DNA of 10,551 nt from IMG/VR virus record IMGVR_UViG_2529292736_000008; one strand, 5' to 3'. Origin of the DNA: a virus (Duplodnaviria; Heunggongvirae; Uroviricota; Caudoviricetes). The number at the start of each line of letters is the position of its first letter. Position 1 is the first letter of the stretch. The translations under genes and the position numbers were made by a program. The notes under the pieces are model-generated. The model was given only the letters and a program-made list of their open reading frames with translations, ran no database searches and was not told the DNA's origin. Positions 2,575 to 10,551 of the stretch are shown here, piece after piece.

Positions 2575-3175
2575 ATGCGTAAACTTTATGCCGCCATTTT
2601 GTCCGCAGCCATTTGTCTGGCCGTATCCGGTGCGCCTGCATGGGCATCTGAACATCAGTCCACGCTGAGCGCGGGGTATCTTCATGCCTTGACGAACGTT
2701 CCCGGCAGCGATGATCTTAACGGGATTAACGTGAAATACCGTTATGAGTTTACGGACACACTGGGGCTGGTGACGTCATTCAGCTATGCAGGAGACAAGA
2801 ATCGCCAGCTTACCCGTTACAGCGATACCCGCTGGCATGAAGATTCAGTGCGTAACCGCTGGTTCAGCGTGATGGCGGGGCCGTCTGTGCGCGTGAATGA
2901 ATGGTTCAGCGCGTATGCGATGGCGGGTATGGCTTACAGCCGTGTTTCGACTTTCTCCGGGGATTATCTCCGCGTAACTGACAACAAGGGGAAAACGCAC
3001 GACGTGCTGACCGGAAGTGATGACGGTCGCCACAGCAACACGTCTCTGGCGTGGGGGGGCTGGCGTGCAGTTTAACCCGACCGAATCCGTGGCCATTGAT
3101 ATTGCTTATGAAGGCTCCGGCAGTGGTGACTGGCGCACTGACGGTTTCATCGTGGGTGTCGGTTATAAATTCTGA
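2575..3175 (+). CDS. lom: Lom outer-membrane protein (Ail/Lom family); reading frame broken by a +1 frameshift in a G7 run (3053..3059). As written the ORF stops at 3075 (166 aa); the remaining 38 codons continue in the next frame to TGA at 3173..3175.
   Basis: N-terminal 160 aa match recalled lambda Lom ([37 protein letters not shown]...). After the G-run the +1 frame reads [38 protein letters not shown], the Lom C-terminus. RBS GAGAGG 5 nt upstream of ATG. Confidence 0.85.
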
Positions 3176-3200
3176 TTAGCCAGGTAACACAGTGTTATGA

Positions 3201-3229
3201 CAGCCCGCCGGTTCAGGCGGGCTTTTTGT
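3201..3229 (+). terminator. Rho-independent terminator downstream of lom
   Basis: Stem AGCCCGCC (3202..3209), loop GGTTCA, stem GGCGGGCT (3216..3223), then TTTTTGT. It overlaps the ATG at 3197 offered by the ORF track, so that start is rejected. Confidence 0.65.
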
Positions 3230-3238
3230 GGGGTGAAT

Positions 3239-6200
3239 ATGGCAGTAAAGATTTCAGGTGTACTGAAAGACGGCACAGGAAAACCGGTACAGAACTGCAC
3301 AATCCAGCTGAAAGCAAAACGTAACAGCACCACGGTGGTGGTGAACACGCTGGCCTCAGAAAATCCGGATGAAGCCGGGCGTTACAGCATGGACGTTGAG
3401 TACGGTCAGTACAGCGTTATTCTGTTGGTGGAAGGCTTCCCGCCGTCACATGCCGGGACCATCACCGTGTATGAAGATTCCCGACCCGGTACGCTGAATG
3501 ATTTTCTCGGTGCCATGACGGAGGATGATGCCCGTCCGGAGGCACTGCGCCGTTTTGAACTGATGGTGGAAGAGGTGGCGCGTAACGCGTCCGCAGTGGC
3601 ACAGAACACGGCAGCCGCGAAGAAGTCAGCCAGTGATGCCAGCACATCTGCCCGTGAGGCGGCAACCCATGCAACCGATGCTGCAGGCTCAGCACGTGCC
3701 GCCAGCACGTCAGCCGGACAGGCTGCATCATCTGCTCAGTCAGCATCTTCCAGCGCAGGAACGGCATCAACAAAGGCCAGTGAAGCATCGAAAAGTGCTG
3801 CTGCTGCAGAGTCCTCAAAAAGCGCGGCAGCTACCAGTGCCAGTGCCGCGAAAACGTCAGAAACGAATGCGGCAGCGTCACAAAAATCTGCAGCCACTTC
3901 TGCATCCGCCGCGACCACGAAGGCGTCAGAAGCTGCCACCTCAGCCCGGGATGCGGCGGCCTCAAAAGAGGCAGCGAAATCATCAGAAACGAACGCATCA
4001 TCAAGCGCCAGTAGTGCAGCTTCCTCGGCAACGGCGGCAGGAAATTCCGCGAAGGCGGCAAAGACGTCTGAGACAAACGCTAAGTCTTCTGAGACGGCAG
4101 CGGAACAGAGTGCCTCCGCAGCAGCAGACTCAAAAACAGCGGCTGCATCATCTGCCAGCGCCGCGTCAACAAGTGCCGGGCAGGCCTCAGCCAGTGCCAC
4201 CGCCGCCGGAAAGTCGGCAGAAAGTGCCGCATCGTCTGCTTCAACAGCCACAACGAAGGCTGGCGAAGCCACTGAACAGGCCAGCGCAGCAGCGAGTTCT
4301 GCTTCCGCAGCGAAGACATCCGAAACGAACGCGAAAGCGTCGGAAACCCGTGCAGAATCCTCAAAAACGGCTGCCGCATCGTCAGCCAGTTCGGCGGCGT
4401 CATCGGCATCATCTGCGTCTGCTTCAAAAGATGAGGCGACCAGACAAGCGTCAGCAGCGAAGAGCAGCGCCACGACGGCATCCACGAAGGCGACAGAGGC
4501 AGCTGGCAGTGCGACGGCGGCAGCACAGAGCAAAAGTACGGCGGAATCCGCGGCAACGCGCGCCGAGACAGCGGCAAAACGGGCAGAGGATATTGCATCC
4601 GCCGTGGCGCTTGAGGATGCGAGCACGACGAAAAAGGGGGTAGTACAGCTCAGCAGTGCGACCAACAGTACGTCTGAAACGCTGGCGGCAACGCCAAAGG
4701 CAGTAAAATCAGCCTATGACAATGCAGAGAAACGTCTGCAGAAAGACCAGAACGGCGCTGATATACCCGATAAGGGACACTTCCTGAACAACATTAACGC
4801 GGTCAGTAAAACAGACTTTGCTGATAAGCGCGGTATGCGTTATGTGCGGGTTAATGCTCCTGCAGGTGCAACATCTGGAAAATATTACCCTGTTGTTGTT
4901 ATGCGTTCTGCTGGCTCAGTAAGCGAACTGGCATCAAGGGTCATTATCACCACGGCAACGCGAACCGCAGGCGATCCGATGAATAACTGCGAGTTTAACG
5001 GATTTGTTATGCCTGGTGGCTGGACTGACAGGGGGCGTTATGCTTATGGCATGTTCTGGCAATATCAAAACAATGAACGAGCCATCCACTCAATAATGAT
5101 GAGTAATAAGGGCGATGATTTGCGCTCTGTGTTCTATGTTGATGGCGCTGCTTTCCCTGTTTTTGCGTTTATCGAAGATGGCCTGTCAATATCCGCACCT
5201 GGTGCTGATCTCGTTGTTAATGATACGACCTATAAGTTTGGGGCAACAAATCCGGCGACTGAATGTATCGCGGCGGACGTTGTCCTTGATTTTAAGAGTG
5301 GGCGTGGTTTTTATGAGTCTCATTCGTTAATCGTTAACGATAACTTGTCGTGCAAAAAACTTTTTGCCACAGACGAAATTGTAGCGCGTGGTGGTAATCA
5401 GATTCGAATGATAGGTGGGGAGTATGGTGCATTATGGCGTAATGATGGCGCTAAAACTTACCTGCTGCTTACCAATCAAGGTGATGTTTATGGTGGCTGG
5501 AATACATTAAGACCGTTTGCTATTGATAACGCAACCGGCGAACTGATTATTGGAACCAAACTGTCCGCAAGTCTGAACGGTAATGCATTAACAGCAACAA
5601 AGCTGCAAACGCCAAGACTGGTTTCTGGTGTTGAGTTTGATGGTTCCAAAGATATTACTTTAACCGCTGCGCATGTGGCTGCTTTTGCCAGAAGGGCAAC
5701 TGATACATATGCCGATGCGGATGGTGGCGTTCCCTGGAATGCCGAATCAGGCGCTTACAATGTCACCCGCTCTGGCGACAGCTATATTCTGGTTAACTTC
5801 TATACCGGAGTCGGAAGTTGCCGGACCCTGCAGATGAAGGCGCATTACAGAAATGGAGGTCTGTTCTACCGTTCCTCAAGAGATGGCTATGGTTTTGAGG
5901 AAGACTGGGCAGAAGTTTATACCTCGAAAAATCTTCCACCAGAAAGCTACCCAGTCGGCGCACCAATCCCGTGGCCATCAGATACCGTTCCGTCTGGCTA
6001 TGCCCTGATGCAGGGGCAGACTTTTGACAAATCTGCATACCCGAAACTTGCAGTGGCTTATCCGTCAGGCGTTATTCCTGATATGCGTGGCTGGACGATT
6101 AAGGGCAAACCTGCCAGTGGTCGTGCCGTATTGTCTCAGGAACAGGACGGCATTAAATCGCACACCCACAGCGCCAGCGCATCCAGTACGGATTTGGGTA

Positions 6201-6505
6201 CGAAAACCACATCGTCGTTTGATTACGGCACTAAATCCACGAATAACACCGGGGCTCATACGCATAGTCTGAGCGGCTCTACAAGCTCGGCTGGAGCACA
6301 CTCGCACGTTGATGGGCGCAGGTTTAATACAAGCACTTTTAAAGACACCTATCAGTATGGTTCTACAGCTGTCGGAAGTAACTCATACCAGGTACAAGGG
6401 GCGGTTGGTCTGGGCGTTGGTACGATGGCGAATACGAACTCTGCTGGCGCGCACACCCACTCACTGTCCGGCACTGCTGCAAGCGCAGGCGCACACGCAC
6501 ATTGA
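3239..6505 (+). CDS. stf: Side tail fibre protein Stf, 5' portion (1088 codons), truncated by IS629; stop codon TGA (6503..6505) is supplied by the IS629 terminus
   Basis: Starts [26 protein letters not shown]..., the conserved lambda Stf N-terminus (recalled). Long Ala/Ser/Thr-rich shaft, a central lower-GC module, then lambda-like C-terminal region GAPIPWPSD...GAHTHSLSG...AGAHAH. Confidence 0.85.
3590..4640 (+). repeat. Degenerate in-frame coding repeats (Ala/Ser/Thr-rich fibre shaft) inside stf
   Basis: Recurring units such as AAKTSETNA(K/A)...SAA(A/T)SAS at DNA ~3841, ~4050 and ~4310; GC-rich GCN/TCN codon runs. This composition explains the long spurious ORFs on other frames and strands. 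Confidence 0.5.
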
Positions 6506-6527
6506 ACCGCCCCGGGTTTCCTGGAGA
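6503..6527. repeat. IS629 terminal inverted repeat (stf-proximal end)
   Basis: TGAACCGCCCCGGGTTTCCTGGAGA; reverse complement of 7787..7811 is TGAACCGCCCCGGGAATCCTGGAGA. Confidence 0.85.
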
Positions 6528-6544
6528 GTGTTTTATCTGTGAAC

Positions 6545-7431
6545 TCAGGCTGCCAGATCATCGTTTCCGATGGAAGCATAATAAGCTTTTTCTGCTTCTG
6601 CCGGTGGGATATGGCCCAGCCTTTCCAGCAATCGTCGATTGTTATACCAGTCCACCCACGTGAGTGTGGCCAGCTCCACTTCTGTCCGGTTTTTCCAGCT
6701 CTTACGGTGTATTACCTCCGCTTTGTAAAGGCCATTGATGCTCTCCGCCATCGCGTTGTCATACGAGTCACCAGTACTTCCTGTTGATGCCAGTAATCCG
6801 GCTTCCTTAAGCCGCTGTGTGTAGGCCAGCGATACATACTGAGAACCTTTATCACTGTGATGGACTGTGCCGGACGGTCGACGGGCCCATAACGCCTGCT
6901 CCAGAGCATCCAGCACGAATGTCGTTTCCATAGACGATGAGACCCGCCACCCCACGATGTATCCGGCAAACACATCAATGATGAACGCCACATAGACGAC
7001 CCCCTGCCATGTGCTGACGTAAGTAAAATCAGCCACCCACAACTGGTCAGGACGTTCTGCCACAAACTGACGGTTTACGCGGTCGCCTGCGGCAACGGCT
7101 TTCCGGCTGACGGTAGTGCGGACCTTTTTACCCCGGAGAACACCGGCAAGTCCCATAACCGCCATGAGGCGCGCCACTGTACATCTGGCTACCCTGATTC
7201 CTTCCCGTAACAACTGACGCCAGACTTTACGCACACCGTATACCTGATGATTCCCATCGTATACGCGCAGTATCTCTTTCTTCAGCCAGTCATCGCGCTG
7301 CGCACGGGCACTGCGTTTATCAGGATGATGTCGCTGTTGCTGACAGTGTAATACGTTGACGGGGCAATATGTAGTTCACTGCATACCGGTCCGACCCCGT
7401 ACAGCTTACGCAGCTTATCCAGCAGTGGCAT
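6545..7431 (-). pseudogene. IS629 transposase OrfB (DDE integrase domain), frameshifted near 7345..7352; longest intact ORF is 6545..7234 (229 aa from GTG)
   Basis: ATG at 7431..7429 opens [28 protein letters not shown], which then runs into a stop. The following frame continues HCQQQRHHPDKRSARAQRDDWLKKEILRVYDGNHQVYGV-RKVWRQLL... through the DDE catalytic region (LWVADFTYV...HHSDKGSQY...YDNAMAES). The two halves are in different frames. Confidence 0.8.
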
Positions 7432-7757
7432 CACTTTTTCCAGAGGCGGTCGAACTCCGCCTTCGCAAAATAAGCGGAAGCCTGGCGAAGGATATCGTTA
7501 CTGCGGCGCAGTTCACGATTTTCACGTTCCAGCTCTTTCAGACGCTGACGTTCAGCGGTGGTGAGCCCGCCATCACCGCCTCCGGTATCCCGCTCATGCT
7601 GGCGTACCCAGACACGCAGAGTCTCCGGTGTACAGTCAATCTTTGGGGCAATGGAACAAATTGCCGCCCACTGTGAGTCATATTCGCCCTGACTTTCCAG
7701 AACCATACGAATCGCCCTCTGACGGACTTCGGGGGAAAAACGAGTATTTTTAGTCAT
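7431..7757 (-). CDS. IS629 transposase OrfA (108 aa, HTH)
   Basis: [30 protein letters not shown]..., IS3-family OrfA with C-terminal leucine-zipper-like region; stop TGA overlaps the orfB ATG (TGATG). Confidence 0.9.
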
Positions 7758-7786
7758 CCTGTTTACCTCTTTCTCAGGGAGTTTAG

Positions 7787-7811
7787 TCTCCAGGATTCCC
7801 GGGGCGGTTCA
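7787..7811. repeat. IS629 terminal inverted repeat (tfa-proximal end)
   Basis: See 6503..6527; 23/25 identity in inverted orientation. Confidence 0.85.
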
Positions 7812-7949
7812 CATACTGTCGGTATTGGTGCACACACGCACTCCGTTGCGATTGGTTCACATGGACACACCATCACCGTTAACGCTGCTGGTAACGCGGA
7901 AAACACCGTCAAAAACATTGCATTTAACTATATTGTGAGGCTTGCATAA
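7812..7949 (+). pseudogene. stf: stf 3' remnant (last 45 codons of side tail fibre gene, separated from the body by IS629)
   Basis: Reads (H)[44 protein letters not shown], matching the recalled lambda Stf C-terminus; stop TAA overlaps the tfa ATG (TAATG). Confidence 0.85.
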
Positions 7950-8533
7950 TGGCATTCAGAATGAGTGAACAAGCACGGACCATAAAAATTTATAATCTGC
8001 TGGCCGGAACTAATGAATTTATTGGTGAAGGTGACGCATATATTCCGCCTCATACAGGTCTGCCAGCAAACAGTACCGATATTGCACCACCAGATATTCC
8101 TGCTGGCTTTGTGGCTGTTTTCAACAGTGATGAGGCATCGTGGCATCTCGTTGAAGACCATCGGGGAAAAACGGTTTATGACGTAGCGTCAGGGGACGAG
8201 TTATTTATTTCTGAACTCGGTCCGTTACCGGAAAATGTTACCTGGTTATCGCCGGAAGGGGAGTTTCAGAAGTGGAACGGCACAGCCTGGGTGAAGGATA
8301 CGGAAGCAGAAAAAATGTTCCGGATCCGGGAGGCGGAAGAAACAAAAAACAACCTGATGCAGGTAGCCAGTGAGCATATTGCGCCGCTTCAGGATGCTGC
8401 AGATCTGGAAATTGCAACGGAGGAAGAAACCTCATTGCTGGAAGCCTGGAAAAAGTATCGGGTGTTGCTGAACCGTGTTGATACATCAACTGCACCTGAT
8501 ATTGAGTGGCCTACGAACCCTGTCAGGGAGTAA
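7949..8533 (+). CDS. tfa: Tail fibre assembly protein Tfa (194 aa), intact
   Basis: [54 protein letters not shown]...[13 protein letters not shown]; near-identical in length and sequence to recalled lambda Tfa; coupled to the stf stop. Confidence 0.9.
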
Positions 8534-8587: not shown

Positions 8588-9256
8588 CTATTTTTTCCCT
8601 GAAGCGGAAAACATTACTACAGTACCTTGAACCTTGGTTTTAACATTCTCGAAATGCTCTGAGAGTATATGTGTTAAGCCTTCTTCGGAATCTTTTGTGT
8701 TTGAAAAGATGCCTTTCTGATTGTAAATGCGCATCAGTTTTTGACCGAAGCTATTGTGCACAACTCCATCGCCAAGAATTGTGGCTCCGTATAGAGTTCC
8801 ATCGTCAGTTAAGGCCTGCGCCGCATTGCGTATTACACAGCTTTTTGTAGATATATTTCCAGGCAGGCAGTGAAGAAGGTAAAACATGGAAATGGAATCA
8901 AATTGACCATGTAACGCCGCGGGATAAGGTTCAAAAACATCATGGCTAATTTTATGTTTAATTTTTGATTCCCCAGCCCTTGTAGATGCCGCGTTCAGGC
9001 TAGCTTCGTTCAAATCCATTAAAGATATCAGACTACTCTCAGGTACGTGAGTAAGGTAAAACCCAGTTCCAACACCAATATCCAGATGGTTGTTACCTAC
9101 ATGTTCCAGAAAGTGTGGAAGAAGGTGTTCCTTTGTAGGACATCCCCATGCAAGCCGATTTGATACTCCCAAAACCCACCAGTCATAAAGCTTTAGGGTA
9201 AGTGGTGTGTAAATTTTAGCCCCATCATCTGTGTTTTTTTTCATTGATTTCACCAT
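8588..9256 (-). CDS. Putative class I (Rossmann-fold) SAM-dependent methyltransferase, 222 aa; AT-rich cargo gene
   Basis: Motif I LDIGVGTGFY (hh[DE]hGxGxG), acidic end of beta-2 (ISLMDLN), motif II/III-like FDSISMFYLLHCLP and LTDDGTLYGATIL. No DPPY/NPPY or PC-Q DNA-methyltransferase motifs, so the substrate is unclear. GC content visibly lower than the flanking phage genes. Confidence 0.7.
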   Translation of the reverse strand: MVKSMKKNTDDGAKIYTPLTLKLYDWWVLGVSNRLAWGCPTKEHLLPHFLEHVGNNHLDIGVGTGFYLTHVPESSLISLMDLNEASLNAASTRAGESKIKHKISHDVFEPYPAALHGQFDSISMFYLLHCLPGNISTKSCVIRNAAQALTDDGTLYGATILGDGVVHNSFGQKLMRIYNQKGIFSNTKDSEEGLTHILSEHFENVKTKVQGTVVMFSASGKK

Positions 9257-9312: not shown

Positions 9313-9582
9313 ATGCTGCCGCAGCATAGCGATATTGAAATAGCCTGGTATGCTTCGATACAGCAGGAGCCGAATGGCTGGAAGACCGTCACCACACAGT
9401 TCTACATCCAGGAATTCAGTGAGTATATTGCGCCACTGCAGGATGCTGTAGATCTGGAAATCGCAACGGAGGAAGAAAGATCGTTGCTGGAGGCATGGAA
9501 TAAATATCGGGTATTGTTGAATCGTGTTGATACATCAACTGCACCTGATATTGAGTGGCCTGCAAATCCTGTCAGGGAGTAA
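9313..9582 (+). CDS. tfa' - chimeric small ORF (89 aa): unrelated 35-aa N-terminus fused to a duplicated Tfa C-terminal domain
   Basis: C-terminal 54 aa ([53 protein letters not shown]) parallel the Tfa C-terminus at 8372..8533. ATG preceded by AAGGGG 4 nt upstream. May be a remnant or an expressed mini-Tfa. Confidence 0.5.
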
Positions 9583-9632
9583 TCATTGGGATTATGCCGC
9601 AGACACGTCGTATGCAGGAACGTGCTGCGGTT
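9415..9632 (+). repeat. Direct repeat copy 2 (~218 bp) of tfa 3' end plus hairpin
   Basis: See 8366..8582. Confidence 0.8.
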
Positions 9633-9993: not shown

Positions 9994-10551
9994 TTAAAAC
10001 CGCATCAACCTTTCCACCAATTGTTCTTTACGGGCAACGATCCACCCATGTTGCTCCAGATAAAATTTAAACCGTTCCAGCGTGCATACCATCGCATCGG
10101 CGGGGACTTTTTCTGTGAACTCGACCTGACCGTGTTTATCGAAGTGGATCAGTAATGCGCATCCATTATTTGGGGCGGGGGAGTTTTGTGCTGCAGGAGG
10201 ACGTTTGTGGAGTTCTTCTTCCATTGCGTTAAATTTTTCAATGTAAGCTTCTTTTAGTCTGGCTGCTTTTTTGCCAGTAAATCCCATTACGAGGAACATG
10301 AAGCCGTCTTTTGTGATCAGGTAGCATCGTGATTCACGTTCTGCGCCGTTGCCAATTTCGACAGTCTGAACATCGGCCGAAAAGTTGGCTGATGTAAATT
10401 CGGGAGAGCAGTCGAGTGTGTCAATCTTAGCTAAAACGTGTTTATGTTGTTTATCGAAGTAGTCGGCAACAGCTTGAGAGGTGGTAACCAGGCGACCATC
10501 TTTGAAAAAGACTTTTGGTGACTCGTTAGAAAAAGTTATAGCTGTATTCAT
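9994..10551 (-). CDS. Rha-family phage regulatory protein (185 aa as read; start codon coincides with the window edge, so the N-terminus may be incomplete)
   Basis: N-terminal region ...GRLVTTSQAVADYFDKQHKHVLAKIDTL...YLITKDGFMFLVMGFTGKKAARLKEAYIEKFNAMEEEL resembles the Rha (pRha) regulatory domain (recalled). C-terminal ~70 aa of unknown function. Confidence 0.7.
   Translation of the reverse strand: MNTAITFSNESPKVFFKDGRLVTTSQAVADYFDKQHKHVLAKIDTLDCSPEFTSANFSADVQTVEIGNGAERESRCYLITKDGFMFLVMGFTGKKAARLKEAYIEKFNAMEEELHKRPPAAQNSPAPNNGCALLIHFDKHGQVEFTEKVPADAMVCTLERFKFYLEQHGWIVARKEQLVERLMRF

Follow-up and report, generated by a model that had tools for sequence, protein, structure and literature searches.

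The 3′ part of the stf (side tail fibre) gene in the window, a 10,551-nt stretch of a Caudoviricetes genome (IMG/VR record IMGVR_UViG_2529292736_000008), in all likelihood encodes the C-terminal receptor-binding module of a lambdoid Stf/StfR fibre, of the phage T4 gp37 type and with a predicted line of iron ions, which has been broken by an insertion sequence (IS) and is most likely unable to form a fibre. The module itself is a known one, since the relationship between lambda Stf and T4 gp37 and the iron sites formed by His-x-His (HxH) motifs are already described in the literature. Below, all features lie on the plus strand except the IS, and Stf residues are numbered in the reconstructed 1146-aa protein.

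The 5′ part of stf up to the IS spans 3239..6502, as delimited by the ORF, Pfam matches and intact homologues. The ORF as it stands covers 3197..6505, and its terminal TGA is supplied by bases 1-3 of the IS. The ATG at 3197 is a possible start, but in intact homologues the annotation begins at MAVKISG (3239). The product stops at His1102. When the IS (6503-7811) is taken out together with one of the two flanking CAT copies, 3197..6502 is joined to 7815..7946 in a single ORF of 1146 aa, or 1132 aa counted from the annotated start, with its stop at 7947-7949. This join is real: many complete E. coli genomes match a 789-nt query across it without interruption and at 99.6% identity. An intact StfR of 1132 aa, from strain TUM13867, aligns gap-free with the reconstructed protein at 98.2% identity. 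Pfam assigns PF08400 (phage_tail_N) to residues 15-148, PF21446 to 677-776 and PF07484 (Collar) to 921-968 (E = 6.5e-11), and the 14-residue 'Phage tail fibre repeat' was also matched. The window gene is a disrupted member of the lambdoid prophage Stf/StfR fibres: the N-terminal prophage tail fibre domain and the gene order J, lom, stf, tfa are both present, and the frame is interrupted by the IS at aa 1102 of 1146. Directly downstream, the start of tfa overlaps the stf stop (TAATG). This gene is intact and encodes a tail fibre assembly chaperone of 194 aa (7949..8533; PF02413 Caudo_TAP, E = 1.3e-44), and 5,798 blocks of the collection contain exactly this protein. The prophage around stf shows decay, with J truncated and lom frameshifted.

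The IS, of 1309 nt, occupies 6503..7811 on the minus strand. Its ends are 25-nt imperfect inverted repeats (TG...CA) at 6503-6527 and 7787-7811, and it is flanked by direct copies of CAT at 6500-6502 and 7812-7814, a 3-bp target duplication. The second copy (7812..7814) is recognised both from the flanks and from the overlap of the alignment blocks to the intact gene, and uninterrupted gene copies confirm the boundaries. The transposase genes orfA and orfB, with HTH_Tnp_1 and a DDE (rve) domain, are on the minus strand, where a 1-nt deletion near 7348 breaks orfB. By its inverted ends, 3-bp duplication and orfA/orfB organisation, the element belongs to the IS629/IS1203 group of the IS3 family. 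The original prediction had called it IS629, a name supported here at the level of group and family. The element is ~95% identical to the O157:H7 copy that carries the label 'IS1203 family', and copies labelled only 'IS3 family' match it at 99.8-99.9%. The insertion in this stf looks private. Among complete E. coli genomes, none matches 80% or more of the window. The left IS/stf junction occurs in 0 of 5,426 complete E. coli genomes and is also absent from GTDB representatives, and a search for the truncated protein, with either start codon, found no database record. Three proteins with ~80% coverage (P0046, P0054 and P0067) were considered as homologues truncated at the same point and proved to be chimeric or otherwise different proteins.

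Seven HxH motifs are found in the tip of the reconstructed Stf: HTH at aa 989 (6161-6169), HTH at 1021 (6257-6265), HSH at 1035 (6299-6307), HTH at 1086 (6452-6460) and HAH at 1100 (6494-6502) on the 5′ side of the IS, and HTH at 1109 (7833-7841) and HGH at 1118 (7860-7868) on its 3′ side. These tripeptides, and their division into five and two by the IS, match exactly what had been read from the interrupted gene, and the description of the segment as Gly/Ser-rich was borne out as well, Ser, Thr, Gly and Ala making up 82 of its 140 residues. The last 232 residues of the protein contain 14 His, every one within an HxH motif, as are the 14 of 14 in the last 158 residues. Chance clustering of His is ruled out by shuffling of the tip, since none of 200,000 shuffles reached seven motifs (mean 0.78). 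Motif 5 ends in a CAT codon that is itself the duplicated target site, and the IS breaks stf directly 3′ of the second His codon of this motif, at the equivalent of T4 residue 982.

The closest structural counterpart is the tip of T4 gp37, solved as PDB 2XGF (Bartual et al. 2010, PMC2996694; details as given in papers citing it). The last 232 residues of Stf match it with E = 2.4e-88 (query 25-256, chain 26-242 of 2xgf_A) and ~75% identity over the alignment. Motifs 1 to 7 align with His 883/885, 915/917, 929/931, 966/968, 980/982, 989/991 and 998/1000 of gp37, and the distances between successive motifs are 32, 14, 51, 14, 9 and 9 residues in Stf against 32, 14, 37, 14, 9 and 9 in gp37, unlike only across the tip. 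Residues G921 and G964 of gp37 are kept, whereas F970 is replaced by Leu. In gp37, the stem subdomain consists of residues 882-931 and 960-1009 and coordinates seven iron atoms, and no plaques form when either H929 or H931 is replaced by Ala (Islam et al. 2019, PMC6957217). The suggestion of a metal-binding tip comparable to that of gp37 is therefore supported more strongly than it was proposed, with the same domain and 7 of 7 motifs aligned, and homology suggests iron as the metal in Stf; the IS does cut this tip, after the equivalent of H982.

By sequence, Stf and gp37 share the same architecture of collar, needle and tip, in which the needle is inserted into the Collar domain and divides it. 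The N-terminal part of the collar, delimited by the Pfam match, the alignment and published limits (PMC6957217), comprises Stf 916-987 (5942..6157; gp37 811-881). It is followed in the alignment by the outgoing strand of the needle, or stem, with motifs 1-3 (Stf 988-1037, 6158..6307; gp37 882-931). The returning strand is divided by the IS into a first part with motifs 4-5 (Stf 1080-1102, 6434..6502; gp37 960-982) and the rest with motifs 6-7 (Stf 1103-1129, 7815..7895; gp37 983-1009). The last block is the C-terminal piece of the collar (Stf 1130-1146, 7896..7949 including the stop at 7947-7949; gp37 1010-1026), whose 17 residues show a pattern identical to that of gp37, the C-terminus being the same in both proteins. 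Both blocks 3′ of the IS are no longer translated. Between motifs 3 and 4, the variable distal tip, or head, subdomain of 42 aa (Stf 1038-1079, 6308..6433) corresponds in position to the 28 aa of gp37 932-959, to which its sequence is unrelated; it is presumed to be the receptor-contact part. The two systems also differ outside the module. The Stf tip is carried on a lambdoid side-fibre shaft with phage_tail_N and Ala/Ser-rich repeats, the gp37 tip on its own shaft; the gene directly downstream is of the lambda tfa type and not gp38; and the fibre gene is interrupted here, unlike that of T4.

This tip module is widespread. The complete E. coli genomes that have it number ~1,770, and it occurs as well in 278 phage records and across many Enterobacterales. 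Among 11 aligned tips from T4-like, lambda-like, P1-like and P2-like phages and Nonagvirus, motifs 1, 2, 5, 6 and 7 are invariant and the interval from motif 3 to motif 4 varies freely. Of all His past the PDMRG landmark, 95% are in HxH in a set of 64 complete tips drawn from species-representative genomes, where the number of motifs ranges from 4 to 8 and is higher in longer tips. Phage lambda (Ur-lambda) Stf and E. coli StfR share with the window the gene order J, lom, stf, tfa, the N-terminal domain and the tip family. The lambda/HK630 tip is 71-78% identical to the window tip and differs in having eight HxH motifs, with an additional GIGAHQHPVV unit, and another tip segment. In laboratory lambda, stf is broken by a frameshift, in the window by the IS. 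In R1/R2 pyocin fibres and the spikes P2 gpV and phi92, an octahedral Fe site is likewise built from three HxH motifs and lies on the three-fold axis, but these proteins hold one or a few sites in unrelated folds, and no sequence homology of the window tip to these proteins was found in this analysis.

On the model of gp37, the intact Stf collar would hold an inserted six-stranded needle, in which each of three chains goes out and returns, together with a small distal tip. In the trimer, the six imidazoles of an octahedral metal site would come from one HxH motif of each of the three chains, and with seven motifs per chain a line of seven buried ions is expected, keeping the chains in register. 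The 42 residues between motifs 3 and 4 would form the variable tip that contacts the receptor. An IS3-family element entered directly after the second His of motif 5 with duplication of CAT, supplying the stop codon. The resulting protein lacks motifs 6-7, its returning strand is 27 residues short, and it is without the 17 residues at the C-terminus by which the collar is closed; from this domain topology it is most likely unable to fold into a fibre. An AlphaFold2 monomer of an intact homologue (P0001, with a 99% identical tip; 45-sequence alignment) was uninformative, with a mean pLDDT of 44 and a tip below 50, as expected for a monomer modelled from an intertwined, metal-loaded trimer.

It might be asked whether the same fold holds Zn, Ni or Mn instead of iron. 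Sequence does not specify the metal, iron rests on T4, and crystals of T4 gp12 contained Zn at an HxH site (PMC6116203). This Zn is possibly a refolding artefact, however, as the protein was refolded in zinc salt (PMC6116203), and the metal in the T4 needle is iron (PMC6957217). Since the nearest solved relative, at ~75-80% identity and with all ligands kept, holds seven Fe, another metal in Stf is very unlikely. A working, shorter fibre assembled from Stf as truncated here, with its five motifs and its C-terminus missing, would render the insertion silent or specificity-changing. Natural relatives do function with only four or five motifs, and lambda side fibres are dispensable. Yet all the short natural variants retain the three final motifs as well as the invariant C-terminus, exactly the parts that the window product is without; its out-and-back hairpin would be unpaired and its collar open, and the decayed J and lom argue in the same direction. 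We regard a functional short fibre as extremely unlikely.

The motifs could also act chiefly in DNA, the G-x-H-x-H units being 'His boxes' for recombination and for segment swap or duplication in fibre genes, with no structural role. In the DNA they appear as short repeats of near-identical sequence (GCGCACACCCAC / GCGCACACGCAC), and their number varies from relative to relative, including the additional unit of lambda. In T-even adhesins, His boxes reportedly are the recombination points, a finding attributed to Tetart et al. 1996. Any such role at the DNA level would be an addition to the structural role and not a substitute for it: the His are kept at the protein level in distant phages, are the iron ligands of the 2XGF structure, and T4 requires them (PMC6957217). 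A role in DNA only is hardly credible, and the reading as a gp37-type iron needle is retained.

For annotation, the remnant 3′ of the IS (7815-7946) should be assigned to stf, and the tip can be described as a gp37-type needle, iron-binding by homology. Very probably this prophage no longer has a functional side fibre, which fits its other damage, the truncated J and the frameshifted lom. The tip variant might be of interest for Stf/gp37 tip swaps to retarget phage particles, but many E. coli genomes have intact copies of it, and the significance beyond annotation is small. The 42-aa segment is unlike the tips of T4 and lambda, so that the receptor may differ; a specificity other than their OmpC/LPS binding, displayed on a needle whose length is set in modular fashion by 4-8 HxH motifs, is proposed tentatively, as a possibility somewhat short of an even chance. 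If this is true, the variant would be a novel specificity on a known adhesin scaffold, with possible use in host-range engineering.

The window holds a lambdoid prophage end with J (C-terminal part), lom, stf and tfa in that order, and stf is interrupted by an insertion sequence (IS) at 6503-7811, placed in the IS629/IS1203 group; the name IS629 is confirmed no further than group level. The IS has 25-nt imperfect inverted ends (6503-6527 and 7787-7811), with a direct CAT on both sides (6500-6502 and 7812-7814), and its first triplet supplies the TGA stop of the stf ORF (3197..6505, plus strand). Joining 6502 to 7815, which takes out the IS and one CAT, gives a single ORF of 1146 aa with its stop at 7947-7949. 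This join is correct because many complete E. coli genomes carry an uninterrupted match (99.6% identity) to a 789-nt query across it, and because the reconstructed Stf matches the intact 1132-aa StfR of strain TUM13867 (start Met at the position of window 3239) with 98.2% identity and no gap.

All seven His-x-His (HxH) tripeptides of the original prediction, split 5 and 2 by the IS, are found in the reconstructed Stf. HTH at aa 989 (6161-6169), HTH at 1021 (6257-6265), HSH at 1035 (6299-6307), HTH at 1086 (6452-6460) and HAH at 1100 (6494-6502) precede the insertion; HTH at 1109 (7833-7841) and HGH at 1118 (7860-7868) follow it. All 14 His in the last 158 residues lie inside these motifs, and G-A or G-S directly precedes 6 of the 7. 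When the last 232 residues were shuffled, the mean was 0.78 motifs, and seven were reached in none of 200,000 trials. The 14-residue 'Phage tail fibre repeat' of Pfam also matches Stf, and thus the G-x-H-x-H unit is a curated repeat in its own right. Pfam further places a Phage Tail Collar domain at aa 921-968.

The structure of the homologous phage T4 gp37 tip is known. As far as the gp37 crystal structure is summarized in Islam et al. (2019, PMC6957217), it consists of a collar (residues 811-881 and 1010-1026), a needle stem (882-931 and 960-1009) with seven coordinated iron atoms along its length, and a distal tip (932-959) thought to touch receptors. Changing iron-binding H929 or H931 to Ala abolishes plaque formation (Islam et al., 2019). 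According to Buth et al. (2018, PMC6116203), one Fe at each HxH site is octahedrally coordinated by six His that three symmetry-related motifs contribute, a geometry common to gp37, pyocin fibres and phage spikes. Carrying over the limits in that summary of gp37 places the N-terminal part of the Stf collar at 5942-6157, the outgoing strand with motifs 1-3 at 6158-6307, the distal tip at 6308-6433, the returning strand at 6434-6502 (motifs 4-5) and, beyond the IS, 7815-7895 (motifs 6-7), and the C-terminal part of the collar at 7896-7946. Each gp37 motif (starting at 883, 915, 929, 966, 980, 989 and 998) aligns with one Stf motif. Spacing is 32, 14, 37, 14, 9 and 9 in gp37 and 32, 14, 51, 14, 9 and 9 in Stf, differing only between motifs 3 and 4, where Stf is 14 residues longer and unrelated in sequence. 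The structural residues G921 and G964 are retained, and F970 is Leu in Stf. This homology and the seven-for-seven pairing support, at the level of sequence, the predicted metal-binding tip comparable to gp37. An AlphaFold2 monomer model of the tip was uninformative.

A tblastn search matches the tip in 409 phage records, 278 of which cover 80% or more of it; they include T4-like myophages and lambda-like siphophages as well as P1-like and P2-like phages. Eleven aligned phage tips show no variation in motifs 1, 2, 5, 6 and 7 and almost none at the C-terminus, whereas the motif 3-4 block varies freely, and short variants lack motifs 3 and 4. The lambda/HK630 tip has an extra eighth unit compared with the seven here. 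The relationship between the lambda Stf and gp37 tips, and HxH iron sites in general, have already been published (PMC12617516, PMC9659904, PMC11705849). Among species-representative genomes the module is spread across Enterobacterales; 64 complete tips carry 4 to 8 motifs, with 95% of all His in HxH and tip length increasing with motif number. Of the 5,426 complete E. coli genomes, about 1,770 have a copy spanning 80% or more of the 789-nt query. Lambda/HK630 tip DNA was also found, 100% identical, in sixteen species-representative genomes of unrelated phyla (loci L021-L032, L040, L045, L051 and L059), among them Chromatium, Leeuwenhoekiella, Pseudomonas, Neobacillus, Paenibacillus, Shewanella, Kitasatospora, Bradyrhizobium and others. 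For several of these copies the contig has low coverage and a length of about 48.4-48.5 kb, and they are almost certainly phage lambda contamination of the assemblies concerned. Four database proteins (P0046, P0054, P0038 and P0049), in which the tip is fused to unrelated N-termini (capsid-like, tape-measure-like, Lom and terminase), are probably artificial chimeras, created where assembly or gene calling went wrong at the repeated tip sequence.

Other genes of the window are also damaged. An IS66-family element occupies its left end (1-1734; tnpB at 656-1003 and tnpA at 1003-1680, both on the minus strand), has 99.6% identity with an ISCro1-like copy, and interrupts J, whose remaining C-terminal part covers about 1735-2505. 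In lom (2575-3175), comparison with a close relative whose 199-aa lom is intact shows a frameshift caused by an extra G near 3053, which leaves two overlapping ORFs (2575-3075 and 3017-3175). The Stf shaft (aa about 130-480; window about 3600-4650) is Ala/Ser/Thr-rich and repetitive, with GC of about 0.60 and AT skew up to 0.45, and spurious long ORFs overlie it in other frames or on the opposite strand, e.g., 3633-4643 (plus) and 3736-4665 (minus). A SAM-dependent methyltransferase gene (8588-9256, reverse strand) and, after it, an N-terminally truncated second tfa copy (9313-9582) form an arrangement common to intact relatives, where it adjoins yciEFG and the trp operon. Homology to these relatives stops near 9540-9630, and a Rha-family gene (9994-10551, minus strand) lies beyond. 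The IS in stf is 1309 nt long versus 1310 nt in its relatives. A single-base deletion near 7348 splits its orfB between '...APSTYY' and 'HCQQQRHH...', so that the transposase is broken and this copy probably cannot move unaided.

By homology, intact Stf would most likely trimerise with the aid of Tfa, bury seven metal ions on the trimer axis, presumably Fe(II), and show its 42-residue distal tip to a surface receptor. The insertion, with its 3-bp duplication, cuts the tip as originally proposed: translation of Stf now ends with the second His of motif 5. Missing from the product are two metal sites predicted from T4, 27 proximal residues of the returning strand and the final 17, which complete the collar. 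The truncated Stf is expected to be unable to fold into a fibre, because the missing parts are those kept by every natural short variant. This exact insertion was not seen in complete E. coli genomes or GTDB representatives, nor was a database record of the truncated protein found; the insertion is therefore a private event, probably recent, in an already decaying prophage. The region is a disrupted copy of a well-characterised, very common and already known fibre-tip module.
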